The notes beneath the pieces are model-generated. The model was not told where the DNA came from. It did not search any database and was given only the letters and a program-made list of their open reading frames with translations. 64,000 nt of DNA from positions 23,281 to 87,280 of the forward strand of contig JAUNUR010000003.1 in assembly GCA_030538085.1 (NCBI GenBank). Direction: 5' to 3'. Position numbers and translations under genes: made by a program. How positions within the stretch are numbered: the stretch's first letter is position 1; each line of letters starts with the position of its first letter. The stretch is from Pseudomonadota bacterium. Lineage in GTDB: Bacteria; Pseudomonadota; Gammaproteobacteria; Burkholderiales; Burkholderiaceae_C. Of the stretch, positions 1 through 19,046 are shown piece after piece.

Positions 1-36
1 CCAATTTCTCCTGGAGCGGCACCGGTTTGCGCCGGA

Positions 37-690: not shown

Positions 691-729
691 GACAGGTGTC
701 CTTTCGTCGGGTATGGGCAGGGTGAACTC

Positions 730-817
730 ATGACAAATGACCGCCGGCATAGACCAATGACCATCTTCCTTCGTCATTGAAGCGCGGCAAAGTCATTTGC
801 CATTTGTCATTTGTCAT
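730..817. repeat. Heptamer tandem/inverted repeat (GTCATTT units)
   Basis: ATGACAAATGAC 730-741 is the reverse complement of GTCATTTGTCAT 806-817; about 3.5 GTCATTT/GCCATTT units in 792-817. Confidence 0.7.
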
Positions 818-1692: not shown

Positions 1693-2117
1693 TCGTCCAG
1701 CATGGCCGACCAGCGCTCGCCCCAGCCGCCGCGGCGCTGCTCGTCCATGGCGCGGCGGTCGCGCTTGGTGGGGCGGCCCTGGGTCAGGGCGTGCGCCGGC
1801 TCGGGCGCCAGCCGGCGCGCGGCGGCGGCCTGCTCGCGCGTGGTGATGCTTTCGGGCGTTTCCGCGTACAACCGCTGCGCCACCGGCGCCGGCCCGCGCG
1901 TGGGGCTGAGACCCTGCACGACCACGGTGCGCACCACATGGCCCTGGCGCAGCGTCACCACATCGCCCACCTTCAGCTCGCGCGCGGGCTTGACATCGCT
2001 GCCCGCCACCTGCACGCGACCGCGCTCGATCTCGTCCACCGCCAGCGCGCGGGTCTTGTAAAAACGCGCGGCCCACAGCCATTTGTCGATGCGTTGTCTT
2101 TCCAGTGGTTCAGCCAT
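1689..2117 (-). CDS. hslR: Ribosome-associated heat shock protein Hsp15 (S4 domain)
   Basis: RIDKWLWAARFYKTR and GRPTKRDRR motifs. Confidence 0.93.
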   Translation of the reverse strand: MAEPLERQRIDKWLWAARFYKTRALAVDEIERGRVQVAGSDVKPARELKVGDVVTLRQGHVVRTVVVQGLSPTRGPAPVAQRLYAETPESITTREQAAAARRLAPEPAHALTQGRPTKRDRRAMDEQRRGGWGERWSAMLDE

Positions 2118-2120
2118 GAT

Positions 2121-2185
2121 CACCTTGACACGGTGTTGACCCGCGGACACCGTGTGGATTGCGGCCTTCGCCGCAATGACGGGAT
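2121..2185 (-). repeat. REP-like element, one-arm copy of the 62322-62422 element
   Basis: Reverse complement matches 62322-62386 with about 2 mismatches. Confidence 0.85.
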
Positions 2186-2285
2186 GAGGTGAAGGCATTG
2201 CATAGGCTTGTCCTGAATGACGAAACTCTCAACAGTGGACAGCCTGTTGGTCGTCTAGGCTGTGCTCCAACGCGAGGGCGCGTCA

Positions 2286-3530: not shown

Positions 3531-5146
3531 GCTTGGGCTTGCTGATTGGAGGGTTGGAAGAGGCCGGCAAAGTGTTGCGACAGGGCTTTGCGGTCAATCT
3601 TGCCGTTGGCATTGCGCGGCAAACTGTCCGCGGCGATATGGACATGACTGGGCACCATATAGGCGGGCAGTTGTTTGCGGCACAACTGCTGCACATGCTC
3701 AGGCTCCAGCACTTCCCCCTTGCGCGGCAAGACCACGGTGACGATGGCTTGGCCCAAACGGGGGTGGGTGACGCCAAACGCGGCCACTTCCGCAATGCGG
3801 GCGTCGCTGTAAATGACTTCTTCAAGCTCGACCGGGCTGATGCGATAGCCCGAGGTTTTGATCATTTCGTCCTGTCTGCCAATGAAATACAGATAACCGT
3901 GCGCGTCACGGCGCACCGTATCGCCTGAAAACACGGCCAGCTCGGGGCAGGTCAAGCCACTGCCGGGCCGCGGCAGGGGTTTGAAGCGTTCGGCCGTTTT
4001 TTCAGGATCATTCCAGTAACCCAGCGCCACGGTAGAGCCGCGATGAACCAGCTCACCGGGCTCATCCGCGTCACACTCGGTGCCGTCGGGGCGCAGCACC
4101 AGCACTTCTTGATTCGGGATGGCCCGGCCAATGGAGTCGGGGCGCGCATCGACTTCTTGCGGCGGCAGGTAGGTGGAGCGGAACGCTTCGGTCAGGCCGT
4201 ACATCAGATAAGGGCTGGCCTGCGGCAGTAAAGCGCGCAGGCGGCTCAAGACGTCGCGCGGCATCTTGCCGCCGGTATTGGCGAAGTAGCGCAGATGCTG
4301 GCCCGCGCCGTCAGGCCATTTGAGTTCGGCCAGCTGTATCCACAGCGGTGGCACCGCGGTGAGCCCCGTGATGCGTTCACGCTGCAAAACTTGCAGCACT
4401 TCGCTGGGCAGGGTGTAGTCCAGCAGGACGGCGCAAGCTCCCACGGTAAGGGCGGTGGTCACTTGCGACAAGCCCGCATCAAATGACAAGGGCAGCACCG
4501 CCAGCAGGCGATCTTGCGGGCCGTTGTTCAAATAACTGGCCACGCTGGCCGCGCCGCTGACCATGTTGCGGTGCGACACCACCACGCCTTTGGGTTTGCC
4601 GGTGCTGCCGGAGGTGTAGAGGATGGCGGCCATGTCGGCATCAATCACGCCATGAACCGCGTGCGGGTGGCTGGGCGTTTGCAGCCATTGCGGCCACGGC
4701 AGCAAGTGGCAGCGTTGGGCCTTTACCTCGCCCGCACCCACCAGCACGACATGTTGCAAGGACGGGCATTGTTCCGCCGCCGCGGCCAGCAAACGCCAGC
4801 GATCAGGCGAAGTCACCAAAACCCGCACGCCGCCATCACTGAGGATATGCGCCACCTGGTCGGGTTTGAGCAATGGGTTCACGGGCACGAAAACGCCACC
4901 GGCTTCGGCCGTGCCCAGCATGGCCGCCACCGCTTCAAAGCGTTTGGACAAAAAAATGGCCACCCGCTCCCCACGCTGCAAACCATGAGCCAGCAGTCCT
5001 TGAGCAAAAGCCGATTGCATTGCAACCAGCTCTGCGTAACCGAGGTCTTGGCCGGCATGGCGCAGGGCTATCGCATCAGGGGTTTGCCGTGCGACTGCCT
5101 GGGTCAGGTGCTGCAGGAGTGAAGGCGCTTTCATTGGCGCTTGCAT
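3527..5146 (-). CDS. AMP-forming acyl/aminoacyl ligase (resembles the exosortase-A-associated acyl-CoA ligase family)
   Basis: YTSGSTGKPKG, MYGLTEAFRSTYL, FSGD, GYRISP, PRNANGKIDR; ATGA overlap with the decarboxylase. Confidence 0.9.
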   Translation of the reverse strand: MQAPMKAPSLLQHLTQAVARQTPDAIALRHAGQDLGYAELVAMQSAFAQGLLAHGLQRGERVAIFLSKRFEAVAAMLGTAEAGGVFVPVNPLLKPDQVAHILSDGGVRVLVTSPDRWRLLAAAAEQCPSLQHVVLVGAGEVKAQRCHLLPWPQWLQTPSHPHAVHGVIDADMAAILYTSGSTGKPKGVVVSHRNMVSGAASVASYLNNGPQDRLLAVLPLSFDAGLSQVTTALTVGACAVLLDYTLPSEVLQVLQRERITGLTAVPPLWIQLAELKWPDGAGQHLRYFANTGGKMPRDVLSRLRALLPQASPYLMYGLTEAFRSTYLPPQEVDARPDSIGRAIPNQEVLVLRPDGTECDADEPGELVHRGSTVALGYWNDPEKTAERFKPLPRPGSGLTCPELAVFSGDTVRRDAHGYLYFIGRQDEMIKTSGYRISPVELEEVIYSDARIAEVAAFGVTHPRLGQAIVTVVLPRKGEVLEPEHVQQLCRKQLPAYMVPSHVHIAADSLPRNANGKIDRKALSQHFAGLFQPSNQQAQA

Positions 5147-5171
5147 GGAAATTTCCTTGAATGCGGATAAA

Positions 5172-6251
5172 TCAAGTGGCCGTCTCGAAAGCCGTGTTGC
5201 TCAAGGCTGTCAACCCTGTCAGCACGGTGCGGGTTTGCTCAAAAAGGCGCTTGAAGGGCAGTCCCTCGACATAGCCATGGGCGCCCGCGGTTTGCACGGC
5301 ATCCCGGGTGACGCGGCCAGCCAGTTCAGACACATAACTGGACGAGAGCGCCACGCCTGCCACATTGCCGCCAAAACAAGCTTGCGCATACAGCCACAAG
5401 GCTTGCTGGTTCATGGCGATATCGGCCAGGCGCAAGGCCACTGCCTGGTGGTGAAGCAAGGGCTTGCCCGCCGACTGGCGTGTGCGGGCGTAAGCATAGG
5501 CGGCCAAGCTGGCGCGCTGCGTCATGCCAGCCAACAAGCCCATCAACAGGGCTTGATACTGTCTCAGCACCGCGGCAACGGCAGCGCGCGCGTTTGCATC
5601 GTCAGACGCGGGGGCTGGGTGCAAGGCCGGCGCCTCGGGCTTGGCGCACAGCCACATGGCCATGCCACTGGGCAGGCCCATGAGGGGCGACTCGATTTCC
5701 ACGCTGAAATGGGTCTGCAAATCAGCCAGACTGCAAGGGCCCGATACAGATGCGTTCTGGCTGGCCTCGTCCACCTGCAAAAAGTAGATGAACCGCGCCG
5801 CCTCGGCGCTGGCCGATTGCCAATACACCCAGCGCTGAAGGCCGTTTTCAGTGCGCAGGGGCCAGGCGATTCGCACGCTGGCCGGGCCGGGCGTGGATGC
5901 GCCCGTGTCTTGAGGCTGCGCTGATCCCAGCGCTTGCAACAGCGCTTGCTCCAAGGCGCTCAGCAAGCCCTGCCAAGCCACTTCAGGACGCGCCGCGCCC
6001 AAGGTATAGGCCAGGTGCAGCATGACCGTGGGGCGCTCCGGAGCCTCCATGCCCTCCAGCAAGGCATCCACGTTCAATGCCGCAATGGCCTGCAAGCCTT
6101 GGTCCAGGCTGCTTGCACTGTCGCGCTGCGAGACTTTTTCCAGGTCGATGTCCCTGGCAACGGCCTGCGCGGCATCAATGAATGCCTGCAGGTCTGGCGA
6201 CACGGCGAAGGATATGGGCGAGGTCGGTTCGGTTGTGGTCATGGCGATCAA
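5172..6251 (-). CDS. Degenerate acyl-CoA dehydrogenase-like protein (probable non-catalytic partner)
   Basis: C-terminal YARTRQSAGKPLLHHQAVALRLADIA and DAVQTAGAHGY; no xEGT catalytic motif; divergent N-terminus. Confidence 0.7.
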   Translation of the reverse strand: MIAMTTTEPTSPISFAVSPDLQAFIDAAQAVARDIDLEKVSQRDSASSLDQGLQAIAALNVDALLEGMEAPERPTVMLHLAYTLGAARPEVAWQGLLSALEQALLQALGSAQPQDTGASTPGPASVRIAWPLRTENGLQRWVYWQSASAEAARFIYFLQVDEASQNASVSGPCSLADLQTHFSVEIESPLMGLPSGMAMWLCAKPEAPALHPAPASDDANARAAVAAVLRQYQALLMGLLAGMTQRASLAAYAYARTRQSAGKPLLHHQAVALRLADIAMNQQALWLYAQACFGGNVAGVALSSSYVSELAGRVTRDAVQTAGAHGYVEGLPFKRLFEQTRTVLTGLTALSNTAFETAT

Positions 6252-7438
6252 TACGCAGTAGGGTCAAAGGCGCGCGCGATCATTTGCCGCTGCATGTCGC
6301 CGGTGCCTTCCAGAATGTCGAAGGCCTTGGCATCGCGATAGAACTTGTCGAAGCGCTGGCGCACGGCAGGCGCGGCCAGGGCGAAGCGCTGGCTCAGATA
6401 CTGCGCCAGCTCCATCGACAGCGTGGATGTGAATGCCTTGGCCATCGAAGCATCCAGGGAAACGCGCAACTCCTGGTCATAACGCCAAGCAGCGCGCAGG
6501 GTCAGCAGGCGGGCCGATTCCAGACGCGCCTGGTAAGTGTCCAGATCGGCCTGCACGGCTTGCCGGGCCTGGGCGCTCAGGCCGCCATCGTCGTGCGCGG
6601 CAATTTGCCTGGCCAGGGCCAGCGCGCCAGCGCAGGCTCCGTTGATCAGGCTCGACAGGGCCGGGCGCATATAGTCCCAGGCGTATTGCGCGCCGGTGAA
6701 GGCGTCGATCAAAGGGCCCCGCTTGCCGTTGTGACCCAGCATGGCGCCAGCAGGCACGCGGCAATCCTGAAAGGACAACGAGGTGAGTTGACTGGCGCGC
6801 AGGCCCATCATGTCTTCGCAGCGGTCGGCGGAGAAGCCCTTGGCGTTTTTGTCGACGACAAAGGCGCGAATGCCGAAGCGGCCTTTGCTGGCATCCAGCG
6901 TGGCGAACACCACGATCACGTCGGCACGCATGCCGTTGGTGATGAAGCACTTCTCGCCATTGAGCACATAGTCATCACCATCGCGGCGCGCGTGCAATCG
7001 AAGAGCTGTCGCGTCCGAGCCAATCCCCGGCTCGGTGATGGCAAAAACGCCCCACACCGGGCGGTGCTCATCATGAAAGCGTTCGAAATACACGCGCTGC
7101 TGCTCCGGCGTGCCCAGTGCGAACACCGGCGGCATGGACAGCCCCGGCCCCGGCAAGGCGATGGCCAGCCCCGGGCAAACACGCCCCAGTTGCTCGAACA
7201 ATATGCAGCGGTGTACGGCCGAGCCCGTCGAGGACACGCCACCATGGGCTTGCGGCATGTTGAAGCGGTTGAGCGGCCCCACGGGCACGCGCGACCACAG
7301 CGAGGCGGGTATGTCGGCCTCTTGATCAGCCTGCATGACCAAGCCGCCAAGCTCATGCAGCAAGGTCTGCATGAGTTGCCAGCTCTCGCGGTCTTCGCGC
7401 CGCACTTGCGCGTCCACGGCCTTGATGTCGACATTCAC
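6248..7438 (-). CDS. Acyl-CoA/acyl-ACP dehydrogenase
   Basis: FAITEPGIGSD, LNGEKCFITNG, MMGLRAS, DILEGTGDMQR (catalytic Glu); GTG start spaced after AGGAG. Confidence 0.92.
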   Translation of the reverse strand: MNVDIKAVDAQVRREDRESWQLMQTLLHELGGLVMQADQEADIPASLWSRVPVGPLNRFNMPQAHGGVSSTGSAVHRCILFEQLGRVCPGLAIALPGPGLSMPPVFALGTPEQQRVYFERFHDEHRPVWGVFAITEPGIGSDATALRLHARRDGDDYVLNGEKCFITNGMRADVIVVFATLDASKGRFGIRAFVVDKNAKGFSADRCEDMMGLRASQLTSLSFQDCRVPAGAMLGHNGKRGPLIDAFTGAQYAWDYMRPALSSLINGACAGALALARQIAAHDDGGLSAQARQAVQADLDTYQARLESARLLTLRAAWRYDQELRVSLDASMAKAFTSTLSMELAQYLSQRFALAAPAVRQRFDKFYRDAKAFDILEGTGDMQRQMIARAFDPTAY

Positions 7439-7472
7439 AGTCAATACTCCTTCTCTGCCAGATGTGCCGTGA

Positions 7473-8882
7473 TCAGTCTTGAAGAATCGGGTGTCGGGTG
7501 GCGTCCAACTGGCGGGCGCATCGCCAGCTCAATGCCACGGCGGTGACGCCAAAGCCCAAAGCCAGGCCCTGCCACAAGCCCAGCAAGGCGCCGCCCAGCA
7601 CCACGCCCAAAATCCATTGCCCACCGTTGCCCACCACGCCGTAGCCCACCAGCGCCTGAAAGAATGGCGCTCGCGTTTGGCCCAGGCCGCGCAAGATGGC
7701 GGCGGCCACCAGGATCACCCCTTGCAGCCCCAGCACCAGGCCGGCCCAAGGCATGATCTGGCGCAGCGCGGCCGCCTCGTTCGCCTGGTAAGCCAAGGGC
7801 CCCAGAATGACCGCGCCCATGGGCACGGCGGCGATCGTGAAGACCACCACGGCGATGGCGGTGAACACCAGCGTCAGCGCCATGGCCACCCCCGCGTTAT
7901 GGTTGCGCGCGCGCGGATCGCCTTCCGCATGGGCCACGGCCACATACTGGACCACGGCTTGCGAAATGCCCAAAGGGACTACCAAGGCGAAGGTCACCCA
8001 CAGCGCGGCGACGGAATGCACCGGCACGGCATGAGGCCAATATCGCCCCGCGACCATGGCGGCGAACGCCAGCATCAGGCTATCGAGCAACACCACGGCA
8101 CCGATGGGCCAGCCCACGGCAAAGACCTCGGCAAAGGCGGCGCGAATCCGCGCTCCTTGCACTTGCCAGTCGAAACGCAAGGGCTTGAGCACCAGCAAAA
8201 TGCCCATGGCCGCTGCCGCCATGATCCAGTTCGACACGCTGACCGCGCCGATGGCCATCTCACTGGCATATGCGGGGTCGCCACCCCACCGCCGCATGCT
8301 CAGCGCGGCCAAAACGGCACCACACACCGACCCCAGGATGTAAACACCGGTGGCCTGTCCGGGGCGATCTCGCAAGGACACATGAATGCGAAACACCACC
8401 ACCCACAGCGCGGGCAGCAGCCCCACCGCGTTGGCGATGCCAAAGCCATAAGCGGCCCGCGCCAGCTCGGTGTCAACGCCCAGCAGCAGCAAGGCCTGAC
8501 TGCTCAGCACGCTCAGGCCGCTGCACACCAGCCCCACCACGGTGGAAAAGAAAAAACCCGCCACCATCGCCACACGGTAATCGTCGTCGCGACCACGCCC
8601 CAGCGCTCGGCCTCCCAAAAAATACAAGGCCTGCAGCATGCTGGCCGCGGCAATGAAGATGGGCATGTTGAAACTGGCCATCAAGGCGTAGGCCGCGTAG
8701 CTGTGCGAACTTTTTTGGGCAATGAGGCCAGCCACCACCACGCTCATCAGCAAGGGGGCGCTTTGCGCCAAGGTCATCTTGGTGGACAGGCTCAGCATGG
8801 GCATCAGCACCGGCTTGACTGAAGGACGGTCGCTGACCGCGGTGGCCTGTGCCGTTGCGGAGGCGGAATCGTGTTGTCTCAT
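7473..8882 (-). CDS. MATE-family efflux transporter
   Basis: About 12 hydrophobic segments; VGWPIGA, ILRGLGQTRAP motifs. Confidence 0.82.
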   Translation of the reverse strand: MRQHDSASATAQATAVSDRPSVKPVLMPMLSLSTKMTLAQSAPLLMSVVVAGLIAQKSSHSYAAYALMASFNMPIFIAAASMLQALYFLGGRALGRGRDDDYRVAMVAGFFFSTVVGLVCSGLSVLSSQALLLLGVDTELARAAYGFGIANAVGLLPALWVVVFRIHVSLRDRPGQATGVYILGSVCGAVLAALSMRRWGGDPAYASEMAIGAVSVSNWIMAAAAMGILLVLKPLRFDWQVQGARIRAAFAEVFAVGWPIGAVVLLDSLMLAFAAMVAGRYWPHAVPVHSVAALWVTFALVVPLGISQAVVQYVAVAHAEGDPRARNHNAGVAMALTLVFTAIAVVVFTIAAVPMGAVILGPLAYQANEAAALRQIMPWAGLVLGLQGVILVAAAILRGLGQTRAPFFQALVGYGVVGNGGQWILGVVLGGALLGLWQGLALGFGVTAVALSWRCARQLDATRHPILQD

Positions 8883-8893
8883 GCGGGCGCTCC

Positions 8894-10006
8894 TCAAGCG
8901 CTAGGGCTGCGTGCCTGCAACAGGGCCACGCCGATCGTGCCGCCGGGACTCATGCCCCAACCAAGGTAGCGCGTGCCATCGGCCACCTGGCCTGCCTGGA
9001 TGTCAGCCAGCAGGCGCGCAATGGCGACGGGGCCAGATGCGGCGCAAAGCCAGGCCATGTCCACAAGATCGCGCTCGTGCTCTCTCGTGGACTGCTGCGC
9101 AAGCGGGATTTGCAGGTGGGCCATGCCCAGGCTGGTTTGCAGCGCCTGATCCCAATCAAGCCCCAAGCCTGACGGCAACCAGCCTTGAACGTCGTGGGCT
9201 TGCAAGCCATGTTGGTCCATCAATTCGCACATCAGCATCCGCGCATCAGCCAGCACACGCTGGCGGTCGATGCCGGGCAACGAAGCTTGCGCCGCGCCGG
9301 GCAGGGTGACATAAGGATCGAAACCGCGCACAAGCGTGTCCACGCACGCCAGCGCGGCTTGCCTTGGCGGCTCTTGCAGGCGCTCGATCCACAGCGCGGC
9401 GGCACCATCACCCAGCACGACAGGCCAGCCCAGCACGCGTGGCGTGGGCAGCGGCCACTTCTCGGCACAGATCAGCATCGCGCCGTACTGGCTGGCTGAC
9501 TCGGCACCGTAGGCATCGATGATGTGCATGGCACCGATCCATGACGCACCGTGCCACTGCGCCACCCCGAAGTGCGGCACACGGGACAAGCCCACGCCAC
9601 ACACCACGCGCGACAGGCTGGACTGGAAAAAATTCTCATCCACGCTGCTGGTGGCATAGACAGCCAGGCTGCACTGGGGCTTTTCACCCAGGTGCCGCAT
9701 CAAGCCTTGCACGGCTTGTTCTGCCATGCCGGCCTGGCTGGCCTTGGGCTCCCAGGTGAAACGCGCACCCGCGCGCACATGGGCTTGAACGGCTTCAGGC
9801 GTACACCAGGCGCTGGCATCCTGCCCCACCTCGTCAAACTGCCAGCGCGTGAGCACGCGGTAGGGCATGGCGCTGGTAGATGTTCCGGGTACGTCGGCCT
9901 GCTGTTCGGCAAGTGCCTCTTGCCGCCATTGATCGACCGTCGCGGTCGTTCCGGGCAAGACGGCGCAGGCATGAACAAAGGCCAGCGCGTGATCAGACCG
10001 CGGCAT
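8894..10006 (-). CDS. KAS-III/thiolase-fold protein lacking the catalytic Cys (KAS-4)
   Basis: VVLGDGAAALWI, AVYATSS, GWGMSPGGTIG; Cys position reads QWHG. Confidence 0.65.
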   Translation of the reverse strand: MPRSDHALAFVHACAVLPGTTATVDQWRQEALAEQQADVPGTSTSAMPYRVLTRWQFDEVGQDASAWCTPEAVQAHVRAGARFTWEPKASQAGMAEQAVQGLMRHLGEKPQCSLAVYATSSVDENFFQSSLSRVVCGVGLSRVPHFGVAQWHGASWIGAMHIIDAYGAESASQYGAMLICAEKWPLPTPRVLGWPVVLGDGAAALWIERLQEPPRQAALACVDTLVRGFDPYVTLPGAAQASLPGIDRQRVLADARMLMCELMDQHGLQAHDVQGWLPSGLGLDWDQALQTSLGMAHLQIPLAQQSTREHERDLVDMAWLCAASGPVAIARLLADIQAGQVADGTRYLGWGMSPGGTIGVALLQARSPSA

Positions 10007-10268
10007 CGCACTTGCTTTTGACGAACTCGACCAGATTGCCAAAGCGGTTGAACATCTCGGCCGACAAGTCTTCCACGTCGATGGTGAAGTTGAAGCGGCC
10101 TTCCAGGTCTGTCAGTAACCCGACCACGCTCATGGAGTCGAGGCCGATTTCCAGCAGATTGGTGTCCATGGTGATGGCCTCGCGAGGCATGTCCAGTTGC
10201 AGCAGCTGAAGCACCATGTCGCGCATGGTGTCGGCAATCTCCTGCTCGGTCAGCGTGTTGTTTTGCAT
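9993..10268 (-). CDS. Acyl carrier protein
   Basis: LEIGLDSMSVV phosphopantetheine motif; acidic 91 aa; AAGGA RBS. Confidence 0.93.
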   Translation of the reverse strand: MQNNTLTEQEIADTMRDMVLQLLQLDMPREAITMDTNLLEIGLDSMSVVGLLTDLEGRFNFTIDVEDLSAEMFNRFGNLVEFVKSKCDAAV

Positions 10269-10428
10269 GGTTTGTGTCCTTGATATGAAGGTTGAAAATA
10301 ATTTGGGAAACTGGCGCGATGTTGAGCTTGCCTCGGCGCTCCATACCCCGTGGCCGGGCTGCGCGCTGGCTGGTCGAGCTTGATCGGCGAGCCTTTTTTT
10401 CGAGCCGCAGCGGACGGACTACCCAGCC

Positions 10429-11586
10429 TCATCCGTCCGCGCCTTGAGTCTGGTGTGAGCCAAGAGGCAAGTCCGGATCGGGCAGGTGCGCACTGGCCCA
10501 TCCGTGAGCCATGCGCCGGGCTTGGTGTGAACAGCGAACGCGCAGCGCGGCGGCATGACCGCTTAAGCTGGCCATCCAGATCACCGCGTCAATGGGCTTG
10601 CCTCGCCGGACGGCCAGCCCGACCAGATCGCTCAAGGCGATCAAGGGCGAAGCGCTGGACAGGTGTATGTGATTTGAGCGTCCGTGCTGCGATGGCCAGA
10701 GCAATTCGCCCCCCCAGGCCGAGGTGTCGGCCACTTGCTCCAACAGCGCGGCACTGTAGGCATCGCCCGCCAGCACGGCATGAGCGCGTTGCGAGGGTGG
10801 CAGCGATTGCGCCACATGGGCCACCTGGCTGCTGGCCCATTCAAGCAAGCGCGCATGAAGCTGCCGTGGAGGCTCTTGCCAGGGCTCGGCATCGCATGGC
10901 GCTTCGCTGAGTGCGATCTCTTCGACGGTGGCAATGGCTTGGTCATCGTGTGGATCAGCCCCATCGCCCGCGGTCGCCTCACGCACCAGGCAGGCGGCCG
11001 CGGCATCGCCATAGGTCACCACATCAGGAATGCGGCGATAAAAAGGGGCCATCCATTTGTCCGCCGCGCTGACAAGAATCGGCGCCTGGGCGATGGATGC
11101 ATTCACGGATGTGCGGTGTCCTCCGTCATGCTGGGCGCTGGCCATGGACGCCCACACGCTGGCCAGCCGCAAGGCCGTGGCCAGCCCCGCGGTGCCGTTT
11201 TGGCTGATGGTCTGAGTCAGCCGGCTGCCAGGCGCGTAGGCCTGTTGCAGGCGCAAACAGGTGGAGCCCAGTATTTGCTGATCCAGGGTGCACTGCGTAT
11301 GCAGGATGGCGCGGGTTTGCGCAAGGGGCTGGGCAAGCGCCTGTGCCAGATGTCCCGCCACCTGCGCTGTCTGATCACTGTTGCGCGCCAGGGCAGGCCA
11401 GGTCGGGGCTTGGTAAGCGTCGGCCGGTAGCCGCATGACGCCAGGCTCAACCGTGGCGGGACGGGAAAACTGGCCTGCTTGCTCCAGCAGATGCATATGG
11501 CTTTGCGGCGCCGCCGTGCCCAGCAAGCTGTGTTGCGTTTGGCAGGCTGGCACATCGGTTGTTAGCGCAAGAATGGACAGGCGCAT
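10429..11586 (-). CDS. KAS-III/thiolase-fold protein lacking the catalytic Cys (KAS-3)
   Basis: ILVSAADKW, TYGDAAAACLV; Cys position reads QNGT. Confidence 0.65.
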   Translation of the reverse strand: MRLSILALTTDVPACQTQHSLLGTAAPQSHMHLLEQAGQFSRPATVEPGVMRLPADAYQAPTWPALARNSDQTAQVAGHLAQALAQPLAQTRAILHTQCTLDQQILGSTCLRLQQAYAPGSRLTQTISQNGTAGLATALRLASVWASMASAQHDGGHRTSVNASIAQAPILVSAADKWMAPFYRRIPDVVTYGDAAAACLVREATAGDGADPHDDQAIATVEEIALSEAPCDAEPWQEPPRQLHARLLEWASSQVAHVAQSLPPSQRAHAVLAGDAYSAALLEQVADTSAWGGELLWPSQHGRSNHIHLSSASPLIALSDLVGLAVRRGKPIDAVIWMASLSGHAAALRVRCSHQARRMAHGWASAHLPDPDLPLGSHQTQGADG

Positions 11587-11600
11587 GGATATTCCTGGGG

Positions 11601-12563
11601 TCAAGACGGTGGGCGCCATCCAATGGCGGCATAAGCACCCACGTTGGATTGCGCGCAATACACCACGCGCTGGCCTTCGGACAGGAGCCTGACGCCCTCA
11701 TCGGCCATGTTCACGGCAAAGTCGGCGCAGTAGGCATGTCCGCGCTTGCCAATGTTGTCCAGGAAGAACTGATCCATGCCCAGGCCCAGCGATTTGGCAA
11801 TCAACTTCCAATAAGGGAGGGCCGCATTGATGGTCAGCAAGGTGCCCATCTGGTCAACGGGCAGGCCACAGTCCTGTGCATGCTGCTGAAAGAGCTTTTT
11901 GGTTTGCAGCCAGGTCAGGCGTGCGATGGCGGCTATGTTGGCGGCATCGCTAGGACCTTCAAACAGTTGCGTGTAGTTGAGCACGGTGACGCGATCCAGC
12001 ACGCCGAGCAATGACTCACGCCCGATCAGGATGGCCGATCCACCATCGCTTTGCATGCCCGAGTTTTGATAAATGCGGTACCCGGCCTGTCCAAAAACAC
12101 GGTCCGAGGTGACAACCAGGGCATAGCGCGCCCGCGCATCCTGACGCAACAAATCCGCCGCCCACTGTATGGCGTTGCCCACCGCGGCGCAGGCCAGGTG
12201 CGTGACGGAAAAAGACATGTGCGTGCGCCAGCCGTAGCGCTGGGCCAATTGGCTCAACACCGACACAGGCGCAGCCGGCGCGCTGAAGGCTTGTGTGTGG
12301 GCATGAATCACGTAGGCCACGTCAGCGGGATTGAGTCCGCGCGCCATCAGCTGATCGACAGCGATGCAGATGAGATCAAGGTCAGAGCAATGCGAGCCAT
12401 CGTGGAAATAGCGGCAGCCGTTGCGCAGCAACTGCTCCACCAGTTCGGGAGCAACGTCCTGGTCTTGCACCCAGTCCAGCAGGTCAACGGCGGGGCCTGG
12501 CAAGCTGTAGGCCACATCGACCAGCCCTATTTCGGGCTGTGTGGATTGCGATTGAAATGACAT
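11601..12563 (-). CDS. 3-oxoacyl-ACP synthase III-like protein with catalytic Cys (KAS-2)
   Basis: THLACAAV, SDGGSAILIG, DNIGKRGHAYCAD; start MSFQS just after the GNAT stop. Confidence 0.82.
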   Translation of the reverse strand: MSFQSQSTQPEIGLVDVAYSLPGPAVDLLDWVQDQDVAPELVEQLLRNGCRYFHDGSHCSDLDLICIAVDQLMARGLNPADVAYVIHAHTQAFSAPAAPVSVLSQLAQRYGWRTHMSFSVTHLACAAVGNAIQWAADLLRQDARARYALVVTSDRVFGQAGYRIYQNSGMQSDGGSAILIGRESLLGVLDRVTVLNYTQLFEGPSDAANIAAIARLTWLQTKKLFQQHAQDCGLPVDQMGTLLTINAALPYWKLIAKSLGLGMDQFFLDNIGKRGHAYCADFAVNMADEGVRLLSEGQRVVYCAQSNVGAYAAIGWRPPS

Positions 12564-12568
12564 GGCGA

Positions 12569-13228
12569 TTACTCGGCTTCCGCACGGGGGCAAGCGGCCG
12601 CCGAGTCCACCCAGCCCAAACTGCGGCAGGTCACCCCCGATGCCGCCGGCGCATCGGGAAAGCGTGCAATGAACTCGTGCCGCAGCATATCGAACAATAT
12701 GCGGTCTCTCAGCTCGGCACCCATGCGGTGGCGGCCGCGTTGTCGTCCGGTTTGTGTCATGCCCAGCTTGGCGTGCACACCCACCGATGCAACATTGCCA
12801 TCCACCAGCCATGTGCCAATCGCTTCGCGGCCATGTTCTAAAAAGCCGGTGGCCATGGCGGCCAGCAAGGCCGAAGTGGTTATATTTTTGGGCGCGGGGC
12901 CAAAATGACCACGAACACCCCATATCTCGGCCGAGCCCATGGCGTTGTCGATATCCGTCAAGCACACGATGCCTATGGGTACCGTGCTGTCCGGCGCATA
13001 AAACAGCAAACCGCGGTTGCGCTTGCTGGTCAGCATGGAACCCACGGCAAGCCTGGACAACTGTTGACGGCCGCCGCCAAAATCCAGCCAGCAGTGAACG
13101 CGCTGGTTACTCAGCCATTCATGCACGGTGTCGATGTCTTCATGGCCGACGGTTTTGAGCACAACGCGCGGCAAATCGGTGCCAGGAATGGTCTCACACG
13201 TGGGGCGCTTGGAACGGATGGCTCTCAT
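12569..13228 (-). CDS. GNAT N-acyltransferase, RimJ/RimL type
   Basis: PIGIVCLTDIDNAMGSAEIW, LVDGNVASVGVHAKLGMTQTGRQR; TAATG coupling to KAS-1. Confidence 0.78.
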   Translation of the reverse strand: MRAIRSKRPTCETIPGTDLPRVVLKTVGHEDIDTVHEWLSNQRVHCWLDFGGGRQQLSRLAVGSMLTSKRNRGLLFYAPDSTVPIGIVCLTDIDNAMGSAEIWGVRGHFGPAPKNITTSALLAAMATGFLEHGREAIGTWLVDGNVASVGVHAKLGMTQTGRQRGRHRMGAELRDRILFDMLRHEFIARFPDAPAASGVTCRSLGWVDSAAACPRAEAE

Positions 13229-14178
13229 TATGTCCATGCGCTGGCTTGTGTGCTGAGAATGAAGCCGCCAAAGCAACCACCAATGCCACTGGCAAACACC
13301 AAATGATGTCCAGGCGTTTTCAGTGCCGCGGAGTCTGCCAAATTGACCGCTGCGTCTGAGCCGAAAACATGGCCGATGCGGCTGAAGTTGCGCGTGAACA
13401 AACGCTCTTTCGGCAAACGCAAAGCATCCATGGCCTGATACCAGGCCGGCAAGTTCACATTATGAGGCAGCACGGTGTGCAGATCGGAGGGCGTCAGACC
13501 CGCATCTTTGATAACACGGCGGATCACCGACACCAGGCTCCAGAGATAATTGTTGTTGGATTCGTAACGACCGTCGGGCAAGATGCCATGCACCGCCACG
13601 GGATCGTTGTATGTTTGCAGTCCGAGCAACTGGGTGGGCGCATCGCGGCACACCCACATCACCGATGCGCCATCGCTGTGCATGCCAGCGGTGCCAATGG
13701 CACGCAAATCTTCGCGCAAGATGGTATCCACACAAACGATCAAAGCGTTTTGCCACCCGGTTTGCTTGGCAAACAGGGCACGCAACACGCGCAGCGCGTG
13801 GATGGGCGAGACACACTGCTGCTGGGCAATGGAAAAAGTCAGCGCGCGCGTAAACCCCAGCCGCTGACGCAACTCGCCTGTCAGCGTGTAAGGCATGGGC
13901 AGGGCATTGCAAGGCGAGGTATGACAAACCACCAGCGCATCGACTTCATCAGCGCGCAACCGTGGGCACTCGTGCAGCAGTTTGCGTACGGCCGCAAGAC
14001 CCAGATCGATTTGTTTGGCATCACCCCGAACGCGATAAACGGTATCTACGCCATTGCTGCGCAAGACGGCGGCATCGCCAGACCGATATTGCTCATCGCA
14101 CCACTGTTCCAGCGTCACGCCATGCTGAGGTAACACATAAGCAGCGTGGGCAATGCCCACGGAAGTGGACTTGTTCAT
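13228..14178 (-). CDS. 3-oxoacyl-ACP synthase III-like protein with Cys-His-His residues (KAS-1)
   Basis: QQQCVS, SDGAS, LPHNVN, RIGHVFGSD, SGIGGCFG. Confidence 0.85.
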   Translation of the reverse strand: MNKSTSVGIAHAAYVLPQHGVTLEQWCDEQYRSGDAAVLRSNGVDTVYRVRGDAKQIDLGLAAVRKLLHECPRLRADEVDALVVCHTSPCNALPMPYTLTGELRQRLGFTRALTFSIAQQQCVSPIHALRVLRALFAKQTGWQNALIVCVDTILREDLRAIGTAGMHSDGASVMWVCRDAPTQLLGLQTYNDPVAVHGILPDGRYESNNNYLWSLVSVIRRVIKDAGLTPSDLHTVLPHNVNLPAWYQAMDALRLPKERLFTRNFSRIGHVFGSDAAVNLADSAALKTPGHHLVFASGIGGCFGGFILSTQASAWT

Positions 14179-14402
14179 TTTATGGCGGGGTTAATACCGA
14201 GCGACCACCCACTATCGCAAGCGGATTCACGCGGGCCACCGCATACTGAAAACCCAATCACCTCACCCTCCTCACTGAATATTCCCCAGTGCATATACTT
14301 TTTTAATCTCTTTGGGTCATTTTCACCGCCGCTTGCGGCGGTTCCAGCAACGCCCCCGACAGGGGCAGGAGGCGAAGCGGGCAATATTTCCGTATTTATC
14401 AC
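14175..14402 (-). CDS. 75-aa leader ORF of the operon (hypothetical; possible precursor peptide)
   Basis: Its TGA overlaps the KAS-1 ATG (ATGA); GTG start with a weak RBS. Confidence 0.45.
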   Translation of the reverse strand: MINTEILPASPPAPVGGVAGTAASGGENDPKRLKKYMHWGIFSEEGEVIGFSVCGGPRESACDSGWSLGINPAIK

Positions 14403-14949
14403 GGGGAAGATTATTCCACCGTGGAAAAATTACGCGATTAAAGCCGACCAGCCAAGAGCCAACGATTCCGCCCCGTGATGGAAAATGAACGCCCTACACG
14501 TCAAACTGCAACAACCTTTCCGGCAGAGCCGAGGTCACCCCATATTAATAAATCAACCTCACGGTCACTCACCCGAGTCCCAAACGCAGGACTCAATGTC
14601 GGCAGGATGCATTCCTGAAAAATCCAACAATCCTCGTATTCTGCCATAATTTGCAGGGTCAAAAAATAAAAGTTAGAAAAGTAATCGATCCGCCCGCACC
14701 GAAAATAGCACCCGAGAAACAAGTGGCGTTGGCGCGCGGAATTTTCGCTGCTCAAGCGCGGCATCGACGAAGACCAACATGGCAATAGCGCACATTACCC
14801 GTAGCTTAGCGTGATCGTGTCGCTAGCGGATTACCCTCTTTCGGGGGGCTCAGCGAGGAGGAGCGTCAGTGGCTGCGCCCCGATCACGCGATCTTGCGTA
14901 TCGAGTCAGCGCCCACGGCCCAGCGGCTGGTGCGCTCAAGTGCGCCATG

Positions 14950-15352
14950 TCGATGGCATGCCTTTGATCTTTTGCGTCACTGGAGCCAATCGGCACGATT
15001 CAACCGTATTCGAGCAACTGGTCGATGCCCTGCCAGCCGTTGGCGGCAAGCCAGGCAGACCCAAGCGCAAGCCCGCCAAGCGCATGCGGACAAGGGCTAC
15101 GACTATCCGCGATGCTGGATTCATCTCAAGCGCCGAGGCATCAAAAGCCGCATCGCCCGCAAATGCATCGAGCACAACGACCGGCTGGGGCGTCATCGCT
15201 GGGTGGTCGAACGCACCCATGCGTGGCTGGCTGCCTTTGGCAAGCTGAGAACTCGCTTTGAACGCCGCATCGATATTCACCTGGCGCTGCTCAGTCTGGC
15301 TTGCTGCGTCATCTGCATTCGCAACCTTCCAGCGTTTTGTTGGTCGCTCTAA
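14950..15352 (+). pseudogene. IS5-family transposase 3' remnant with right end
   Basis: GMPLIFCVTGANRHDS, then after a frameshift near 15081 HADKGYD...RWVVERTHAWL...RFER; end TTTTGTTGGTCGCTCTAA. Confidence 0.88.
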
Positions 15353-15589
15353 ACCTAGAAACGGCAGTTGACCGCTCGCCATCCTTGGACAACTGGCATG
15401 AGCACTGACTTTCACAGCTTCGATCACATTCACCTGTTGGGTGAGCGCGCTATGCACCCAATCGCACCGCGCTGGCCGTGCCATGCGGCGTTGCTCGTCC
15501 TCGCAGGCACGAGCCTGCCGCGTCCTCGCGTCTTGCCTGGCACGCCCATCACGGCACGCTCGGGCGCATCCAACTGCCGTTTCTAGGCT
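15352..15589. mobile_element. 238-bp MITE-like element, copy 1
   Basis: Ends AACCTAGAAACGGCAGTTG / CAACTGCCGTTTCTAGGCT; highly similar same-length copy at 44126-44363. Confidence 0.88.
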
Positions 15590-15634
15590 AAATGATCCTG
15601 GAGTGATACGGCTATCAACCGCACAATAGGTGTT

Positions 15635-15871
15635 ATGGAAGAGGTCCCGGCCGACACCTTCAGTGCGTTCAAACGCGCACGCATGGAGCTAAAAAGCGAC
15701 CCCCGAGATGAAGCATTTGCTTCAGTCGGCTGCCACGTTGGAGGGCGTGGACCTGACGGCTTTCGTGCTGTGCGCTGCCGCAGAAAAAGCCCGTCGGGTG
15801 CTGACCGACCATGCCCAGATTGCGTTGTCCCGGTCTTCAGCGGCTATGCTGAACGCGGAAAGCCAGCATGA
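15635..15871 (+). pseudogene. Frameshifted DUF1778/TacA-type antitoxin
   Basis: KRARMELKS in one frame continues from 15708 in another as KHLLQSAATLEGVDLTAFVLCAAAEKARRVLTDHAQIALS. Confidence 0.7.
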
Positions 15872-16966
15872 GTAATATTCATAAAAATGCACATCAGGTG
15901 CAGACCGGGGAGCACTCAGATCCTGGGTCAAAGACGGATCGGCCTCTGGTGCGTTCTTCCGCCGCCGAATATCTGACCTTCATGGCGGCCACTGGCCAAG
16001 CAGGTGTGGAAGCCATCTATGCCGATGAAAGCATCTGGCTGACGCAGAAGATGATGGGGGCGCTGTACGACGTCAACGTGCGTACGATCAATGAGCATCT
16101 CAAAAAAATCTTCGCTGACAACGAGTTGCAAGAAGATTCAGTTATCCGGAAATTCCGGATAACTGCCTCTGACAACAAAACCTATAACACCCTGCACTAC
16201 AAGCTTCCCGCCATCATCGCGGTGGGCTACAAGGTCAACTCCGAACGTGCTGTGCAGTTTCGCAAGTGGGCCACAGGCATCATTGAGCAGTTCACCATCA
16301 AGGCCTATGTGATGGATGACGAGCGCATCAAGGCCGGTGGCTCCATCCTCACCGAGCAGTATTTCGAAGAGCAGCTGCAGCGTGTTCGGGAGATTCGGCT
16401 CTCCGAGCGCAAGTTCTATCAGAAGATCACCGACATCTACGCCACAGCCATAGATTACGACGTCACGGCGCAAGCCACACAGCGGTTCTTTGCCACGGTG
16501 CAGAACAAACTGCACTGGGCCATCCATGGCCAAACAGCAGCAGAGGTCATCTATCAGCGTGCCGACGCAAAAAAAGACCATATGGGCTTGACCATCTGGA
16601 AAGACGCGCCGCAAGGCAAGATCCAGAAGTTCGATGCGGTGGTCGCCAAGAACTACCTGACCGAGCATGAAATGGCACAGCTGTCACGGATGGTCAATGC
16701 CTATCTGGACGTGGCAGAAGACATGGCTCAGCGCAAGATTCCCATGACGATGCAGGATTGGGAAACGCTTGAATCGATTCATCGCAGCCACTGACCGTGA
16801 GGTCTTGCAGGACGCGGGCAAGGTGACTGCCGAAATCGCCAAGGCTCACGCCGAGAGCGAATTCGAGAAATATCGCATCGTGCAGGATCGCTTGTTTGAA
16901 AGTGATTTCGACCGGATGCTCAAGCAGATTGGCTCCGGCAGCTCAGCGCCCAAGGGCGAGGGCTGA
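15868..16966 (+). pseudogene. rhuM: RhuM-family DNA-binding protein, frameshifted at ~16768
   Basis: IWLTQKMMGALYDV, AIIAVGYKVNSERAVQFRKWAT, FFATVQNKLHWAIHG; C-terminus NRFIAATDREVLQDAGKV...ESDFDR lies in the +1 frame. Confidence 0.88.
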
Positions 16967-17861: not shown

Positions 17862-18074
17862 ACGGCTCCGATGTTGATCGGGTCTTGGAACTGGAAGGCC
17901 TGCGAGCCGAAAACGCCCGCCTGATCGCGCTGCTTGAATCCCACGGCATCTCGTGGCGCTTGCCCTTGCCACAGCCGGTTATCGCTGTAAACCCAAAGCC
18001 GGAGCTGTCCCGGCTGTCCACTGCAGAGAAGGCGGCTCTGTTCCGGCGGTTGTTTCGTGGACGAACGGATGTCC
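17858..18074 (+). pseudogene. N-terminal remnant of a primase-domain/DEAD helicase protein (TOTE-conflict-system-like)
   Basis: LRAENARLIALLE coiled coil then EKAALFRRLFRGRTDV; breaks off into SecA sequence. Confidence 0.65.
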
Positions 18075-19046
18075 GCGCTGCACGCCTTCCACAAGGACGA
18101 GCACTACATCATCGCCTACGACGAGGAATCCAAGACCGACAAGGTGCAGATCGTCGATGAATACACCGGCCGCGTGATGCCCGACCGCTCCTGGGAGCGC
18201 GGTCTGCACCAGATGATCGAGGCCAAGGAAGGCGTGCAGATCACGGGTCAGCGCAAGACATTGGCCCAGATGACGTATCAGCGCTTCTTCAAGCGGTACT
18301 TGCTGTTGTCTGGGATGACGGGGACCGCACAGGAGATCGCGCCGGAGCTCAAGCGCGTTTACGACCTGGACGTGCTCCCCATCCCGACCAACAAGCCGAA
18401 CCAGCGGCAGTACTGGCGCCCGCGCTGCTGGCATACCGAAAACGAAAAATGGGCTGCCGTGGCACAGCAGGCCACCGAAATAGCCGCTCAGGGCCGTGCC
18501 GTGCTGGTGGGCACGCGCTCGGTGGAAGGCTCAGAAACGCTGAGTCAGTTGCTGACCGATCAAGGCATTGCCCACACGGTGCTCAATGCCCGCCAGGATG
18601 CCGATGAGGCAGAGCTGATCAAGCATGCCGGCGAAGCCGGCCATATCACGGTCGCCACCAACATGGCCGGGCGCGGTACCGACATCAAGCTGCCCCAGAC
18701 CGTGAAAGACAAAGGCGGGCTGCACGTGATCCTGACCGAATACCACGAAAGTGCCCGCATTGACCGGCAACTGTTCGGGCGCAGTGCCCGGCAGGGCGAT
18801 CCGGGAACGGTGCAGGCGCTGGTGTGCCTGGAGGACGATGCCTTTGTGCGTTATGCACCCACGGCAGCGCGTGGGGTGGCGCGGTTGACGCCACAAAACC
18901 GTGAAGTGCCGACCCCGCTATTGCAATGGCTGGTCAAGCTCACGCAACACACCGCCGAGCGCAACAACCGCAAGATCAGGCTCGATACGCTCAAGCACGA
19001 TCAAAAACGCAGAGAACAAATGGGATTCGCGGGGAATCAAGGCTAG
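18075..19046 (+). pseudogene. 3' half of a short SecA-like ATPase paralog
   Basis: IVDEYTGR, GLHQMIEAKEG, GMTGTA, VLNARQ, VATNMAGRGTDI, RIDRQLFGRSARQGDPG; N-terminal NBD1 missing; ends without the canonical SecA C-terminus. Confidence 0.85.

Follow-up and report, generated by a model that had tools for sequence, protein, structure and literature searches.

The operon and its four FabH-fold paralogs

A 64,000-nucleotide stretch of DNA from a Pseudomonadota bacterium of the order Burkholderiales (GenBank assembly GCA_030538085.1, contig JAUNUR010000003.1, forward-strand positions 23,281 to 87,280; the whole stretch is hereafter the window) carries on its minus strand a single densely packed operon of eleven genes, at 2286-14178. 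Four of these genes encode diverged relatives of FabH, the β-ketoacyl-ACP synthase III (KAS-III; ACP, acyl carrier protein), and are named here KAS-1 to KAS-4. With a little more belief than doubt, we read their products as two FabH-fold heterodimers, KAS-2/KAS-3 and KAS-1/KAS-4, that would transfer acyl groups. Each would consist of a Cys-bearing and a Cys-less subunit, packed like the FabH homodimer or like a ketosynthase and its chain length factor (KS/CLF).

KAS-1 (13228-14178) is a FabH-fold protein of 316 aa whose open reading frame matches the Pfam family ACP_syn_III_C (1.6e-8). It is followed by the gene of a GNAT acyltransferase (12569 to ~13237; Pfam Acetyltransf_3, 1e-7) and by KAS-2 (11601-12563; 320 aa), a FabH-fold homolog of Burkholderia AfcO recognised by family alignment and by hhalign comparison with KAS-1. 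KAS-3 (10429-11586; 385 aa) is a Cys-less FabH-fold homolog of AfcR and was recognised by profile alignment to FabH structures. The next open reading frame encodes an acyl carrier protein (ACP; 9993-10268) of 91 aa with a GLDSM motif and matches to NCBIfam ACP models (1.8e-11). It precedes KAS-4 (8894-10006; 370 aa), a FabH-fold protein identified by family profile, structure model and Foldseek search. The four KAS frames and their motifs lie on the minus strand where the original prediction, made from the sequence alone, had located them: QQQC, PHN and IGH in KAS-1, HLAC, TIN and RGH in KAS-2, QNGT in KAS-3 and QWHG in KAS-4. The interval that it had described as four KAS genes, 8894-14178, does contain all four, and the GNAT gene and the operon's ACP lie inside it as well.

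The ACP is the sole carrier protein in the operon and sits between KAS-3 and KAS-4. Its 3' end overlaps the start of KAS-4 by 14 nt, and this coupling of ACP and then KAS-4 is kept in six related loci. The GNAT start, placed by homology, overlaps the KAS-1 stop. GNAT homologs of 212-218 aa come after KAS-1 with 4-bp overlaps in five related loci (L005, L007, L009, L012 and L013), and in L016 the GNAT gene directly precedes a fused KAS gene.

All four proteins have the FabH fold. Family profiles were needed to detect it, since single-sequence searches with Pfam and NCBIfam are nearly blind to three of the paralogs: they gave no match for KAS-4 and only sub-threshold matches for KAS-2 and KAS-3, and NCBIfam FabH models stayed far under their cut-off (for example, 47 bits vs 249). 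KAS-1 matches the FabH structure 2ebd directly (phmmer, E = 1.9e-7), and hhalign relates KAS-2 to KAS-1 with 99.9% probability. KAS-3 has just 33 relatives among 5.8 billion clustered proteins; their family profile finds FabH 8vdb at E = 5.4e-5. The KAS-4 family profile finds 2ebd at E = 3.9e-10, detects PqsC weakly (E = 1.3e-3), and is related by hhalign to KAS-3 with 98.5% probability. An AlphaFold (AF2) model of KAS-4 (pLDDT 80.8, pTM 0.86) has Escherichia coli FabH as its best PDB neighbour (Foldseek E = 4.7e-19), and KAS-2, modelled as part of the natural fusion protein described below, matches FabH chains with TMt 0.71-0.78.

Residues at the catalytic positions

Catalytic positions were read against the E. 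coli FabH columns C112/H244/N274 (sequence from NC_000913.3). Adding FabH with MAFFT --add misaligned the KAS-3 family and part of KAS-2, and HMMER or hhalign columns were used there. The canonical FabH Cys/His/Asn triad is absent from all four proteins, none of which has Asn at the 274 position. KAS-1 has C122, H239 and H270 together with D275, all invariant in 8 sequences. KAS-2 has C125, I245 and H276 together with D281, invariant in 12 sequences; N246, beside I245, is also invariant. The corresponding residues of KAS-3 are T132, G274 and H308, of which T132 and H308 are invariant in 26 sequences, as is D275. KAS-4 has G153 (Ser in one relative), S279 (Ser, Cys or Ala) and W319 (Trp, Tyr, His or Gln), and none of these positions is conserved. 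The Cys is thus invariant in the KAS-1 and KAS-2 families and no Cys stands at that position in the KAS-3 and KAS-4 families, so the proposed division into two Cys-bearing and two Cys-less paralogs is borne out by the mapping onto FabH. A shifted catalytic Cys was looked for in the two Cys-less proteins. T132 of KAS-3 and G153 of KAS-4 fall on the FabH Cys column; KAS-3 also has an invariant Cys99, a conceivable candidate for such a residue.

Among the four paralogs only KAS-4 looks catalytically dead. The original prediction had likened KAS-3, too, to the non-catalytic partner of the PqsB type, and an inert role is probably wrong for it: Thr132 and His308 are invariant and are present in AfcR too. 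KAS-3 further has an invariant C110/R112 and an invariant stretch from H96 to Q104, HTQCTLDQQ, which includes Cys99 and aligns with FabH residues 78-86, immediately before Phe87. In FabH, Phe87 reaches into the active site of the partner subunit, and this loop runs across the dimer interface of FabH-fold enzymes. OleA has its trans-acting Glu117 at an equivalent place. Because the Thr/His set and the interface loop are invariant, KAS-3 probably adds residues to catalysis or substrate binding, and by analogy with the FabH and OleA structures it may supply them in trans.

Probable pairing of KAS-2 with KAS-3

KAS-2 is followed directly by KAS-3 in 9 of 9 related loci, with 4-bp start/stop overlaps in six. 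The two genes are also found together in Rhodanobacter, Steroidobacteraceae and Nguyenibacter, where KAS-1 and KAS-4 are lacking. In Nguyenibacter vanlangensis they form one protein of 656 aa (P0033), whose N-terminal half is 41% identical to KAS-2 and whose C-terminal half is 30% identical to KAS-3. Two further natural KAS-2::KAS-3 fusions, P0042 and P0043, are 79% and 45% identical to P0033. Judged by this divergence down to 45% identity, the fusion is old and maintained.

The P0033 chain was modelled with an alignment in which each half-family was placed on its own half, which the further two fusions made possible. The AF2 model has a pLDDT of 85.9 and a pTM of 0.91; in a two-domain chain, such a pTM means that the domain pair is placed confidently. 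Among PDB entries, Foldseek ranks PfaC's covalent KS-CLF didomain (6riw) first, with a TM-score of 0.64 over the whole 656-residue query, and single FabH chains reach about 0.40 (query-normalised). Because the whole-chain KS-CLF match beats single FabH chains, the two halves are predicted to pack as a classical thiolase-fold dimer. The KAS-2/KAS-3 pairing is thus well supported, and the fusions and the model are indirect evidence of an obligate heterodimer with pseudo-two-fold symmetry.

In a metagenome-assembled genome (MAG) of Rhodopila (L009, 7723-10004), two copies of KAS-2 stand in tandem ahead of KAS-3 and an ATP-grasp gene is absent; Cys-bearing proteins there outnumber Cys-less ones 3:2.

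Proposed pairing of KAS-1 with KAS-4

KAS-1 and KAS-4 are both present in 8 loci (the window and seven related ones) and both absent from the four that carry the KAS-2/KAS-3 type only. An exhaustive profile search with the KAS-4 family recovered 34 close representatives and, further out, three double-length proteins, P0095, P0156 and P0158. These are fusions in the reverse order: the N-terminal half is Cys-less and the C-terminal half resembles KAS-1. The motifs of the three C-terminal halves are QQNC/PPN/GH, GQHC/PHN/GH and GQAC/PHN/GH (Cys/His/His in two of the three), and these halves score 143-173 bits on the KAS-1 hidden Markov model (HMM), above their score on the KAS-2 HMM. All three sit in versions of the same pathway, in clusters with ACP, decarboxylase and acyl-CoA dehydrogenase (ACAD) genes. 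P0095 (L014) stands between ACP and MATE, the slot that KAS-4 has here, and is followed by the ligase, the decarboxylase, an ACAD2-like and an ACAD1-like gene; its cluster also has an unfused pair, a 353-aa Cys-less and a 309-aa Cys-bearing protein. P0156 comes after ATP-grasp, decarboxylase, ACP, the ACAD pair and GNAT, and P0158 after ligase and ACP.

Cys-less halves equal Cys-bearing halves in number in every examined cluster except L009, with its extra KAS-2, and the Burkholderia afc cluster, whose third KAS-III-like protein (AfcL) gave no match to any of the four family profiles. In a maximum-likelihood tree of 48 halves and FabH, a Cys-less clade (KAS-3, KAS-4 and fusion N-halves) separates from a Cys-bearing clade (KAS-1, KAS-2 and fusion C-halves) with SH-aLRT values of 90 and 89. 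Such a split would be expected if one ancestral pair, catalytic and non-catalytic, had later undergone duplication as a unit. Taken together, these sequence comparisons give moderate support to a KAS-1/KAS-4 heterodimer. The idea of two mixed pairs working on one ACP therefore stands for KAS-2/KAS-3, on the fusions, the pseudo-dimer model and the invariant adjacency; for KAS-1/KAS-4 the evidence is indirect, consisting of co-occurrence and reverse-order fusions.

The distant version of the pathway in L014 (1373-6752; metagenome assembly GCA_002400495.2) orders its unfused pair as a Cys-less and then a Cys/His/His protein, and its fused pair is 657 aa long. It also carries a luciferase-like monooxygenase (BtrO-like) and a FabA/ApeP-like dehydratase.

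Acyl transfer as the probable chemistry

A Cys, a His at the 274 position and an Asp five residues later form the signature of KAS-III-like acyltransferases, and it is found in KAS-1 (C122/H270/D275) and in KAS-2 (C125/H276/D281). The precedents are ChlB3 (Cys113/His296/Asp301), CerJ (Cys116/His295/Asp301), AfcL (Cys/His/Asp) and DpsC (Ser/His/His) (PMC9573744, PMC12186527), and they agree with the earlier statement that His replaces Asn in acyl-transferring KAS-III homologs. Because both catalytic subunits carry the His and Asp(+5) motif, acyl transfer or amide formation is likelier than Claisen condensation. KAS-1 and KAS-2 would take an acyl or peptidyl thioester onto their Cys and pass it on, most likely to an amine; an alcohol or a thiol is a less likely acceptor, and a decarboxylative Claisen condensation is likewise less likely. 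Of the two activities originally offered, condensing or amide-forming, the second is the better option.

The surrounding pathway genes

Downstream of KAS-4 the operon continues on the minus strand with five genes. A MATE efflux protein (7473-8897; Pfam MatE 4.5e-18) directly follows KAS-4, as in related clusters. ACAD1 (6248-7444) is an acyl-CoA/ACP dehydrogenase with three ACAD domains in Pfam, a match in NCBIfam and the catalytic-Glu motif LEGT. ACAD2 (5172-6251) is a diverged paralog in which only the C-terminal domain is recognised (Pfam Acyl-CoA_dh_1). The last two genes encode a stand-alone adenylating ligase (3527-5146; TIGR03098, 752 bits, cutoff 592) and a decarboxylase dependent on pyridoxal phosphate (PLP) (2286-3530; TIGR03099, 551 bits, cutoff 478).

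The best stand-alone PDB match of the ligase is VinN (3wvn, 2.3e-55), and β-aminoacyl-ACP synthetases match too; the ligase is predicted to load an acidic amino acid on the ACP through its side-chain carboxylate. The decarboxylase has as its best PDB match BtrK, the L-glutamyl-[BtrI ACP] decarboxylase (1.4e-70), and entries named diaminopimelate decarboxylase reach 2.9e-49 at best (6knh). These matches place it with the decarboxylases whose substrates are amino acids bound to a carrier protein. ACAD1 is a candidate desaturase of a tethered N-acyl-aminoacyl unit, by analogy with BolQ and AfcE (PMC7756342, PMC12186527). ACAD2 ends in ...TVLTGLTALSN, without a YEG/LEG motif where ACAD1 has ILEGT, and is likely a non-catalytic partner of ACAD1; the two are kept together in all full clusters and in L014 and L016. 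The ACAD1/ACAD2 pair resembles a second catalytic/non-catalytic paralog pair in the operon and recalls heteromeric ACADs.

The carrier protein, the stand-alone adenylating enzyme, the PLP decarboxylase and the ACAD-type desaturase, all four gene types of pathways of the afc and bol kind, are present, and from its gene content the operon is predicted to encode a thiotemplated ω-aminoacyl pathway. Two other readings were dropped on the BtrK-like decarboxylase and the AfcO/AfcR-like KAS-2/KAS-3: a pyrrole-2-carboxyl pathway of the PltF/PltL/PltE type, and an OleABCD- or lipstatin-type reading of the ligase, ACAD and KAS-III genes.

In the pathway that we propose, the VinN-like ligase would first put Asp or Glu on the single ACP, and the BtrK-like decarboxylase would convert it to β-alanyl- or γ-aminobutyryl-S-ACP. 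The Cys of KAS-2, with KAS-3, and that of KAS-1, with KAS-4 and beside GNAT, would then accept acyl or peptidyl thioesters and pass them to an amine. As a result, the tethered unit would be N-acylated, transferred and released, or both, by the two KAS pairs and GNAT. KAS-4 would serve as a purely structural partner that, like PqsB, gives shape to the pocket and perhaps to the surface on which the ACP docks. The N-acylated unit would be desaturated by ACAD1, with the Glu-less ACAD2 as its probable partner, in analogy to the formation of dehydro-β-alanine by BolQ and AfcE, and the product would leave through MATE.

A further proposal is put forward tentatively, with more doubt than confidence. 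The AfcO/AfcR-type pair (KAS-2/KAS-3, BolM/BolP) may be an obligate heterodimer with two different centres, a Cys/His/Asp site and a Thr/His site or trans-acting interface loop of the partner, and so a new bifunctional KAS-III-like enzyme for carrier-bound β-alanyl or γ-aminobutyryl (GABA) units. An ancestral pair of this kind might have been duplicated to give KAS-1/KAS-4, and with it a family of amide-forming enzymes independent of non-ribosomal peptide synthetases in Burkholderiales, Gammaproteobacteria, Acetobacteraceae and myxobacteria.

In a Rubrivivax MAG (L001, 1472-5854) a ketoreductase (KR), an ApeI-like dehydratase (DH), a second ACP, and a KS with a Cys-less, CLF-like KS precede the cluster, a set of the aryl-polyene type. 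This set hints that in some lineages the KAS-III pairs may hand on a polyene, or a fatty acid of a special kind, as the acyl group.

Alternative explanations

What weighs against two working heterodimers starts with the state of this copy of the operon and extends to the published work on AFC-BC11. The window and its closest relative, L005 of a Burkholderiales MAG, are colinear between the start of KAS-1 and the stop of the decarboxylase gene, with 68-75% DNA identity. Relatives have further genes: a BtrJ-like ATP-grasp gene behind KAS-3, a gene for a short pentapeptide-repeat protein behind MATE, and, upstream of KAS-1, a set of ABC ATPase, FtsX permease, LolA-like and 452-aa protein genes that afc has too. 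The ATP-grasp gene of L005 and most relatives (BtrJ- or L-amino-acid-ligase-like, 409 aa, 1.3 kb) is cleanly missing from the KAS-3/ACP gap at 10269-10428. The pentapeptide-repeat gene (~90-106 aa, 0.4 kb) is missing between MATE and ACAD1, at 7445-7472, and the upstream set is absent across the whole 64-kb window. Instead of that set, a transposase-like fragment (14811-15352) and a RhuM-family gene (15868-16794) stand upstream of KAS-1, which suggests that a mobile element truncated the cluster or moved it.

The operon could then be a decaying remnant whose product is no longer made, whatever its original role; this is possible, if doubtful. The two clean losses, the absent upstream set and the insertion-sequence-type transposase fragment 0.6 kb upstream all fit such decay. 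They are answered by the eleven genes, which are all intact frames with conserved catalytic residues, by the Rhodopila relative, which also lacks the ATP-grasp gene between KAS-3 and ACP, and by the fact that exporter genes could sit elsewhere in the genome. Because the frames are intact and the Rhodopila cluster shares the ATP-grasp loss, the copy here may be a reduced variant rather than a wreck, although its function is not assured.

Neighbouring reading frames were considered as well. A 75-aa frame at 14175-14402, which overlaps the KAS-1 start and had been thought of as the precursor of a lipidated ribosomally synthesised and post-translationally modified peptide, has no counterpart in any related locus and was rejected. 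The α/β-hydrolase and DsbA genes that follow the decarboxylase at 37-2082 were not accepted as cluster members and are treated as neighbours. Upstream of KAS-1 in the Rubrivivax cluster, two consecutive genes belong to these two Pfam families as well, with no detectable similarity to the proteins at 37-2082, which is either coincidence or very old divergence. A 329-aa frame at 18057-19046 contains parts of SecA domains (PP-binding, DEAD-like, P-loop). Its length falls far below that of SecA, and it is probably either a fragment or a SecA-like remnant borne by a phage or an island. For the region no run turned up in public sequencing data.

The pairing itself is most open to question for KAS-1 and KAS-4. 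Only KAS-2/KAS-3 might be heterodimeric, with KAS-1 a homodimeric KAS-III-like enzyme working with GNAT, and KAS-4 dead and in another job, either as an ACP-binding chaperone or scaffold or as a homodimer that holds an intermediate. We regard this as unlikely but far from negligible. KAS-1 has a complete Cys/His/His set, with which an ordinary homodimer is conceivable. Its gene is not adjacent to KAS-4: four genes lie between them, KAS-1 is coupled to GNAT, and, both here and in six related loci, translation of KAS-4 is coupled to that of ACP. All 34 close KAS-4 representatives are single-domain proteins, so the close family yielded no KAS-1::KAS-4 fusion, and the tree lacks resolution for the placement of the fused relatives inside each clade. 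The heterodimer is favoured by the perfect co-occurrence of KAS-1 and KAS-4, by the reverse-order fusions of a Cys-less to a KAS-1-like half in related clusters, one of them in the ACP-to-MATE slot, and by the 1:1 number of Cys-less and Cys-bearing halves across clusters (exceptions L009 and afc).

A different question is whether the pairs are not acyltransferases but true C-C condensing enzymes in the manner of PqsBC or OleA/LstAB. They would then elongate the aminoacyl-ACP or prime a chain of the fatty or polyene kind. We think this rather unlikely. The Cys/His/His of KAS-1 is the triad of KAS I/II condensing enzymes, the cluster of the Rubrivivax relative adjoins KS/CLF, KR, DH and a second ACP, a KAS-III homolog of bolagladin biosynthesis was proposed to elongate citryl-CoA with malonyl-ACP (PMC7756342), and DpsC does both acyl transfer and condensation. 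KAS-2, however, lacks an equivalent of His244, which FabH needs to decarboxylate malonyl units (for the roles of His and Asn, see PMC4807248), both catalytic subunits have the His-Asp(+5) of the acyl-transferring subgroup (PMC9573744), and a KS/CLF, KR or DH set is absent from the window and from L005.

That all four proteins are independent homodimeric enzymes, with Thr132/His308 of KAS-3 catalytic as Ser is in DpsC, follows the way in which the literature treats AfcL/AfcO/AfcR and BolM/BolP, and it is very improbable: KAS-4 has no conserved residue at any catalytic position, and the three natural KAS-2::KAS-3 fusions, with their confident KS-CLF-like intramolecular dimer model, leave no room for two separate homodimers of the usual kind in a covalently fused pair. 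What it does explain is the invariance of Thr132 and His308 in 26 KAS-3 sequences and their presence in the AfcR-like protein; with Cys99, these residues may mean an enzyme in its own right. AfcR was listed with a Thr/His/Glu 'triad' (PMC12186527), BolP and BolM have Thr and Ser at the Cys position (PMC7756342), and DpsC is active with Ser (PMC9573744). A last point against our reading of two acyl-transferring heterodimers is that, for AFC-BC11, N-acylation was shown for AfcA, a fatty acyl-AMP ligase (FAAL), and peptide release for AfcL (PMC12186527).

Significance

To our knowledge, very few heteromeric FabH-fold enzymes have been described, and PqsBC is the textbook example. Here two of them apparently occur in one operon, and natural fusions in both orders point to the pairing and give a clean, testable prediction. 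The same pairing would explain two unassigned enzymes of the published AFC-BC11 and bolagladin pathways, and if AfcO/AfcR and BolM/BolP do work as heterodimers, in vitro experiments call for co-expressed pairs. The clusters also define an orphan family without a known product, made up of a ligase or ATP-grasp, a BtrK-like decarboxylase, ACP, the ACAD pair and KAS-III pairs. Among its carriers are isolates that can be cultivated (Myxococcus dinghuensis, Hyalangium versicolor and Piscinibacter defluvii), and the pentapeptide-repeat and MATE genes of related clusters suggest a bioactive compound.

Comparison with known systems

PqsBC of Pseudomonas aeruginosa (PDB 5dwz and 6et3) is formed by diverged FabH-fold paralogs encoded by adjacent genes. 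They assemble into a pseudo-symmetric FabH-like dimer in which one subunit lacks the catalytic Cys (PMC4807248). The pairs proposed here share with it two different FabH-fold subunits, one of them without that Cys, and to this extent the label "PqsBC-like" describes their architecture. It fails at the level of residues. PqsC has the Cys, a His of the His244 type and Val at the Asn position, whereas KAS-2 is the opposite, with Ile in place of that His and a His in place of the Asn (PMC4807248). PqsB has no recognisable triad, whereas KAS-3 has its invariant Thr/His, and only KAS-4 is PqsB-like. PqsBC performs a condensation (C-C/C-N) on free 2-aminobenzoylacetate (2-ABA) and octanoyl-CoA, whereas the predicted substrates here are tethered to the ACP. 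In sequence, PqsBC and the KAS proteins of the window are not closely related.

Catalytic and Cys-less thiolase-fold proteins also form obligate pseudo-dimers, sometimes in one chain, in the KS/CLF of type II polyketide synthases and in PfaC of polyunsaturated fatty acid (PUFA) synthase. Those are KAS I/II-type enzymes of ~420 aa that carry out iterative decarboxylative elongation, whereas the proteins here are of the KAS III type, ~320-385 aa long, with acyltransferase-type residues. Such residues liken them to CerJ, ChlB3, DpsC and AfcL, which have a nucleophile at the Cys112 position, His at that of Asn274 and Asp about five residues later, and which transfer acyl groups to O, N or S instead of condensing them (PMC9573744, PMC12186527). 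Acyltransferases of this type are among the top structural neighbours of the KAS-4 and fusion models. In the ChlB3 homodimer every monomer has an active site of its own (PMC9573744), whereas here each catalytic subunit is apparently paired with a Cys-less paralog.

The early steps resemble those of butirosin (BtrI/BtrJ/BtrK) and vicenistatin (VinL/VinN/VinO) biosynthesis, where Glu or an Asp analogue is loaded through its side-chain carboxylate and decarboxylated on the carrier by a PLP enzyme of the diaminopimelate decarboxylase fold; VinN is the enzyme that loads the aspartate analogue in this way. The later steps would differ. There are no aminoglycoside or macrolactam polyketide synthase genes here, and KAS-III pairs would decide the fate of the ω-aminoacyl-ACP.

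By sequence comparison, the nearest characterised relatives are the afc and bol clusters of Burkholderia. In AFC-BC11 biosynthesis AfcQ loads Asp on the carrier AfcK, AfcP decarboxylates it to β-alanine, and the ACAD-type AfcE, a homolog of BolQ, is expected to form dehydro-β-alanine (PMC12186527). Among its KAS-III-like proteins, AfcL and AfcO have Cys/His/Asp and AfcR has Thr/His/Glu. AfcL uses a thioester on its Cys to form an amide bond. The gene afcO is essential with no step assigned to it, and AfcR is left undiscussed (PMC12186527). A second AFC-BC11 paper is silent on the KAS-III-like proteins (PMC13614206). The bolagladin genes run bolM-N-O-P, with Ser (BolM) and Thr (BolP) in place of the Cys, and 'either BolM or BolP' was proposed for the N-acylation of β-alanyl-BolC, for two steps overall (PMC7756342). 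A heterodimer is considered neither in PMC12186527 nor in PMC7756342; AfcO/AfcR-type proteins are discussed there as separate, alternative enzymes.

For the comparison we used the afc cluster of Burkholderia sp. FXe9. FAAL, citrate synthase, O-methyltransferase and AfcL were not found in window positions 1-16000 or in L005, and their absence makes this a related pathway, not an afc or bol cluster. Conversely, afc has nothing that corresponds to KAS-1, KAS-4, GNAT or the short ACAD pair, and the ligase and decarboxylase are distant from AfcQ and AfcP (27-38% identity over parts). The genes of AfcO/AfcR and BolM/BolP are split by those of the decarboxylase and the adenylation (A) domain protein (O-P-Q-R, M-N-O-P), and KAS-2 and KAS-3 are adjacent here. 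The AfcO-like protein of FXe9 nevertheless belongs with the KAS-2 family (283 bits, E = 3.6e-88, 34% identity) and the AfcR-like protein with the KAS-3 family (122 bits, E = 4.4e-39), complete with QNGT and HLSSAE motifs and an equivalent of Cys99. The afc and bol pathways have a carrier, an Asp-activating stand-alone A domain, a PLP decarboxylase for the tethered Asp, an ACAD-type desaturase and KAS-III-like proteins (PMC12186527, PMC7756342); the operon described here has the corresponding gene types, with Asp or Glu as the predicted amino acid.

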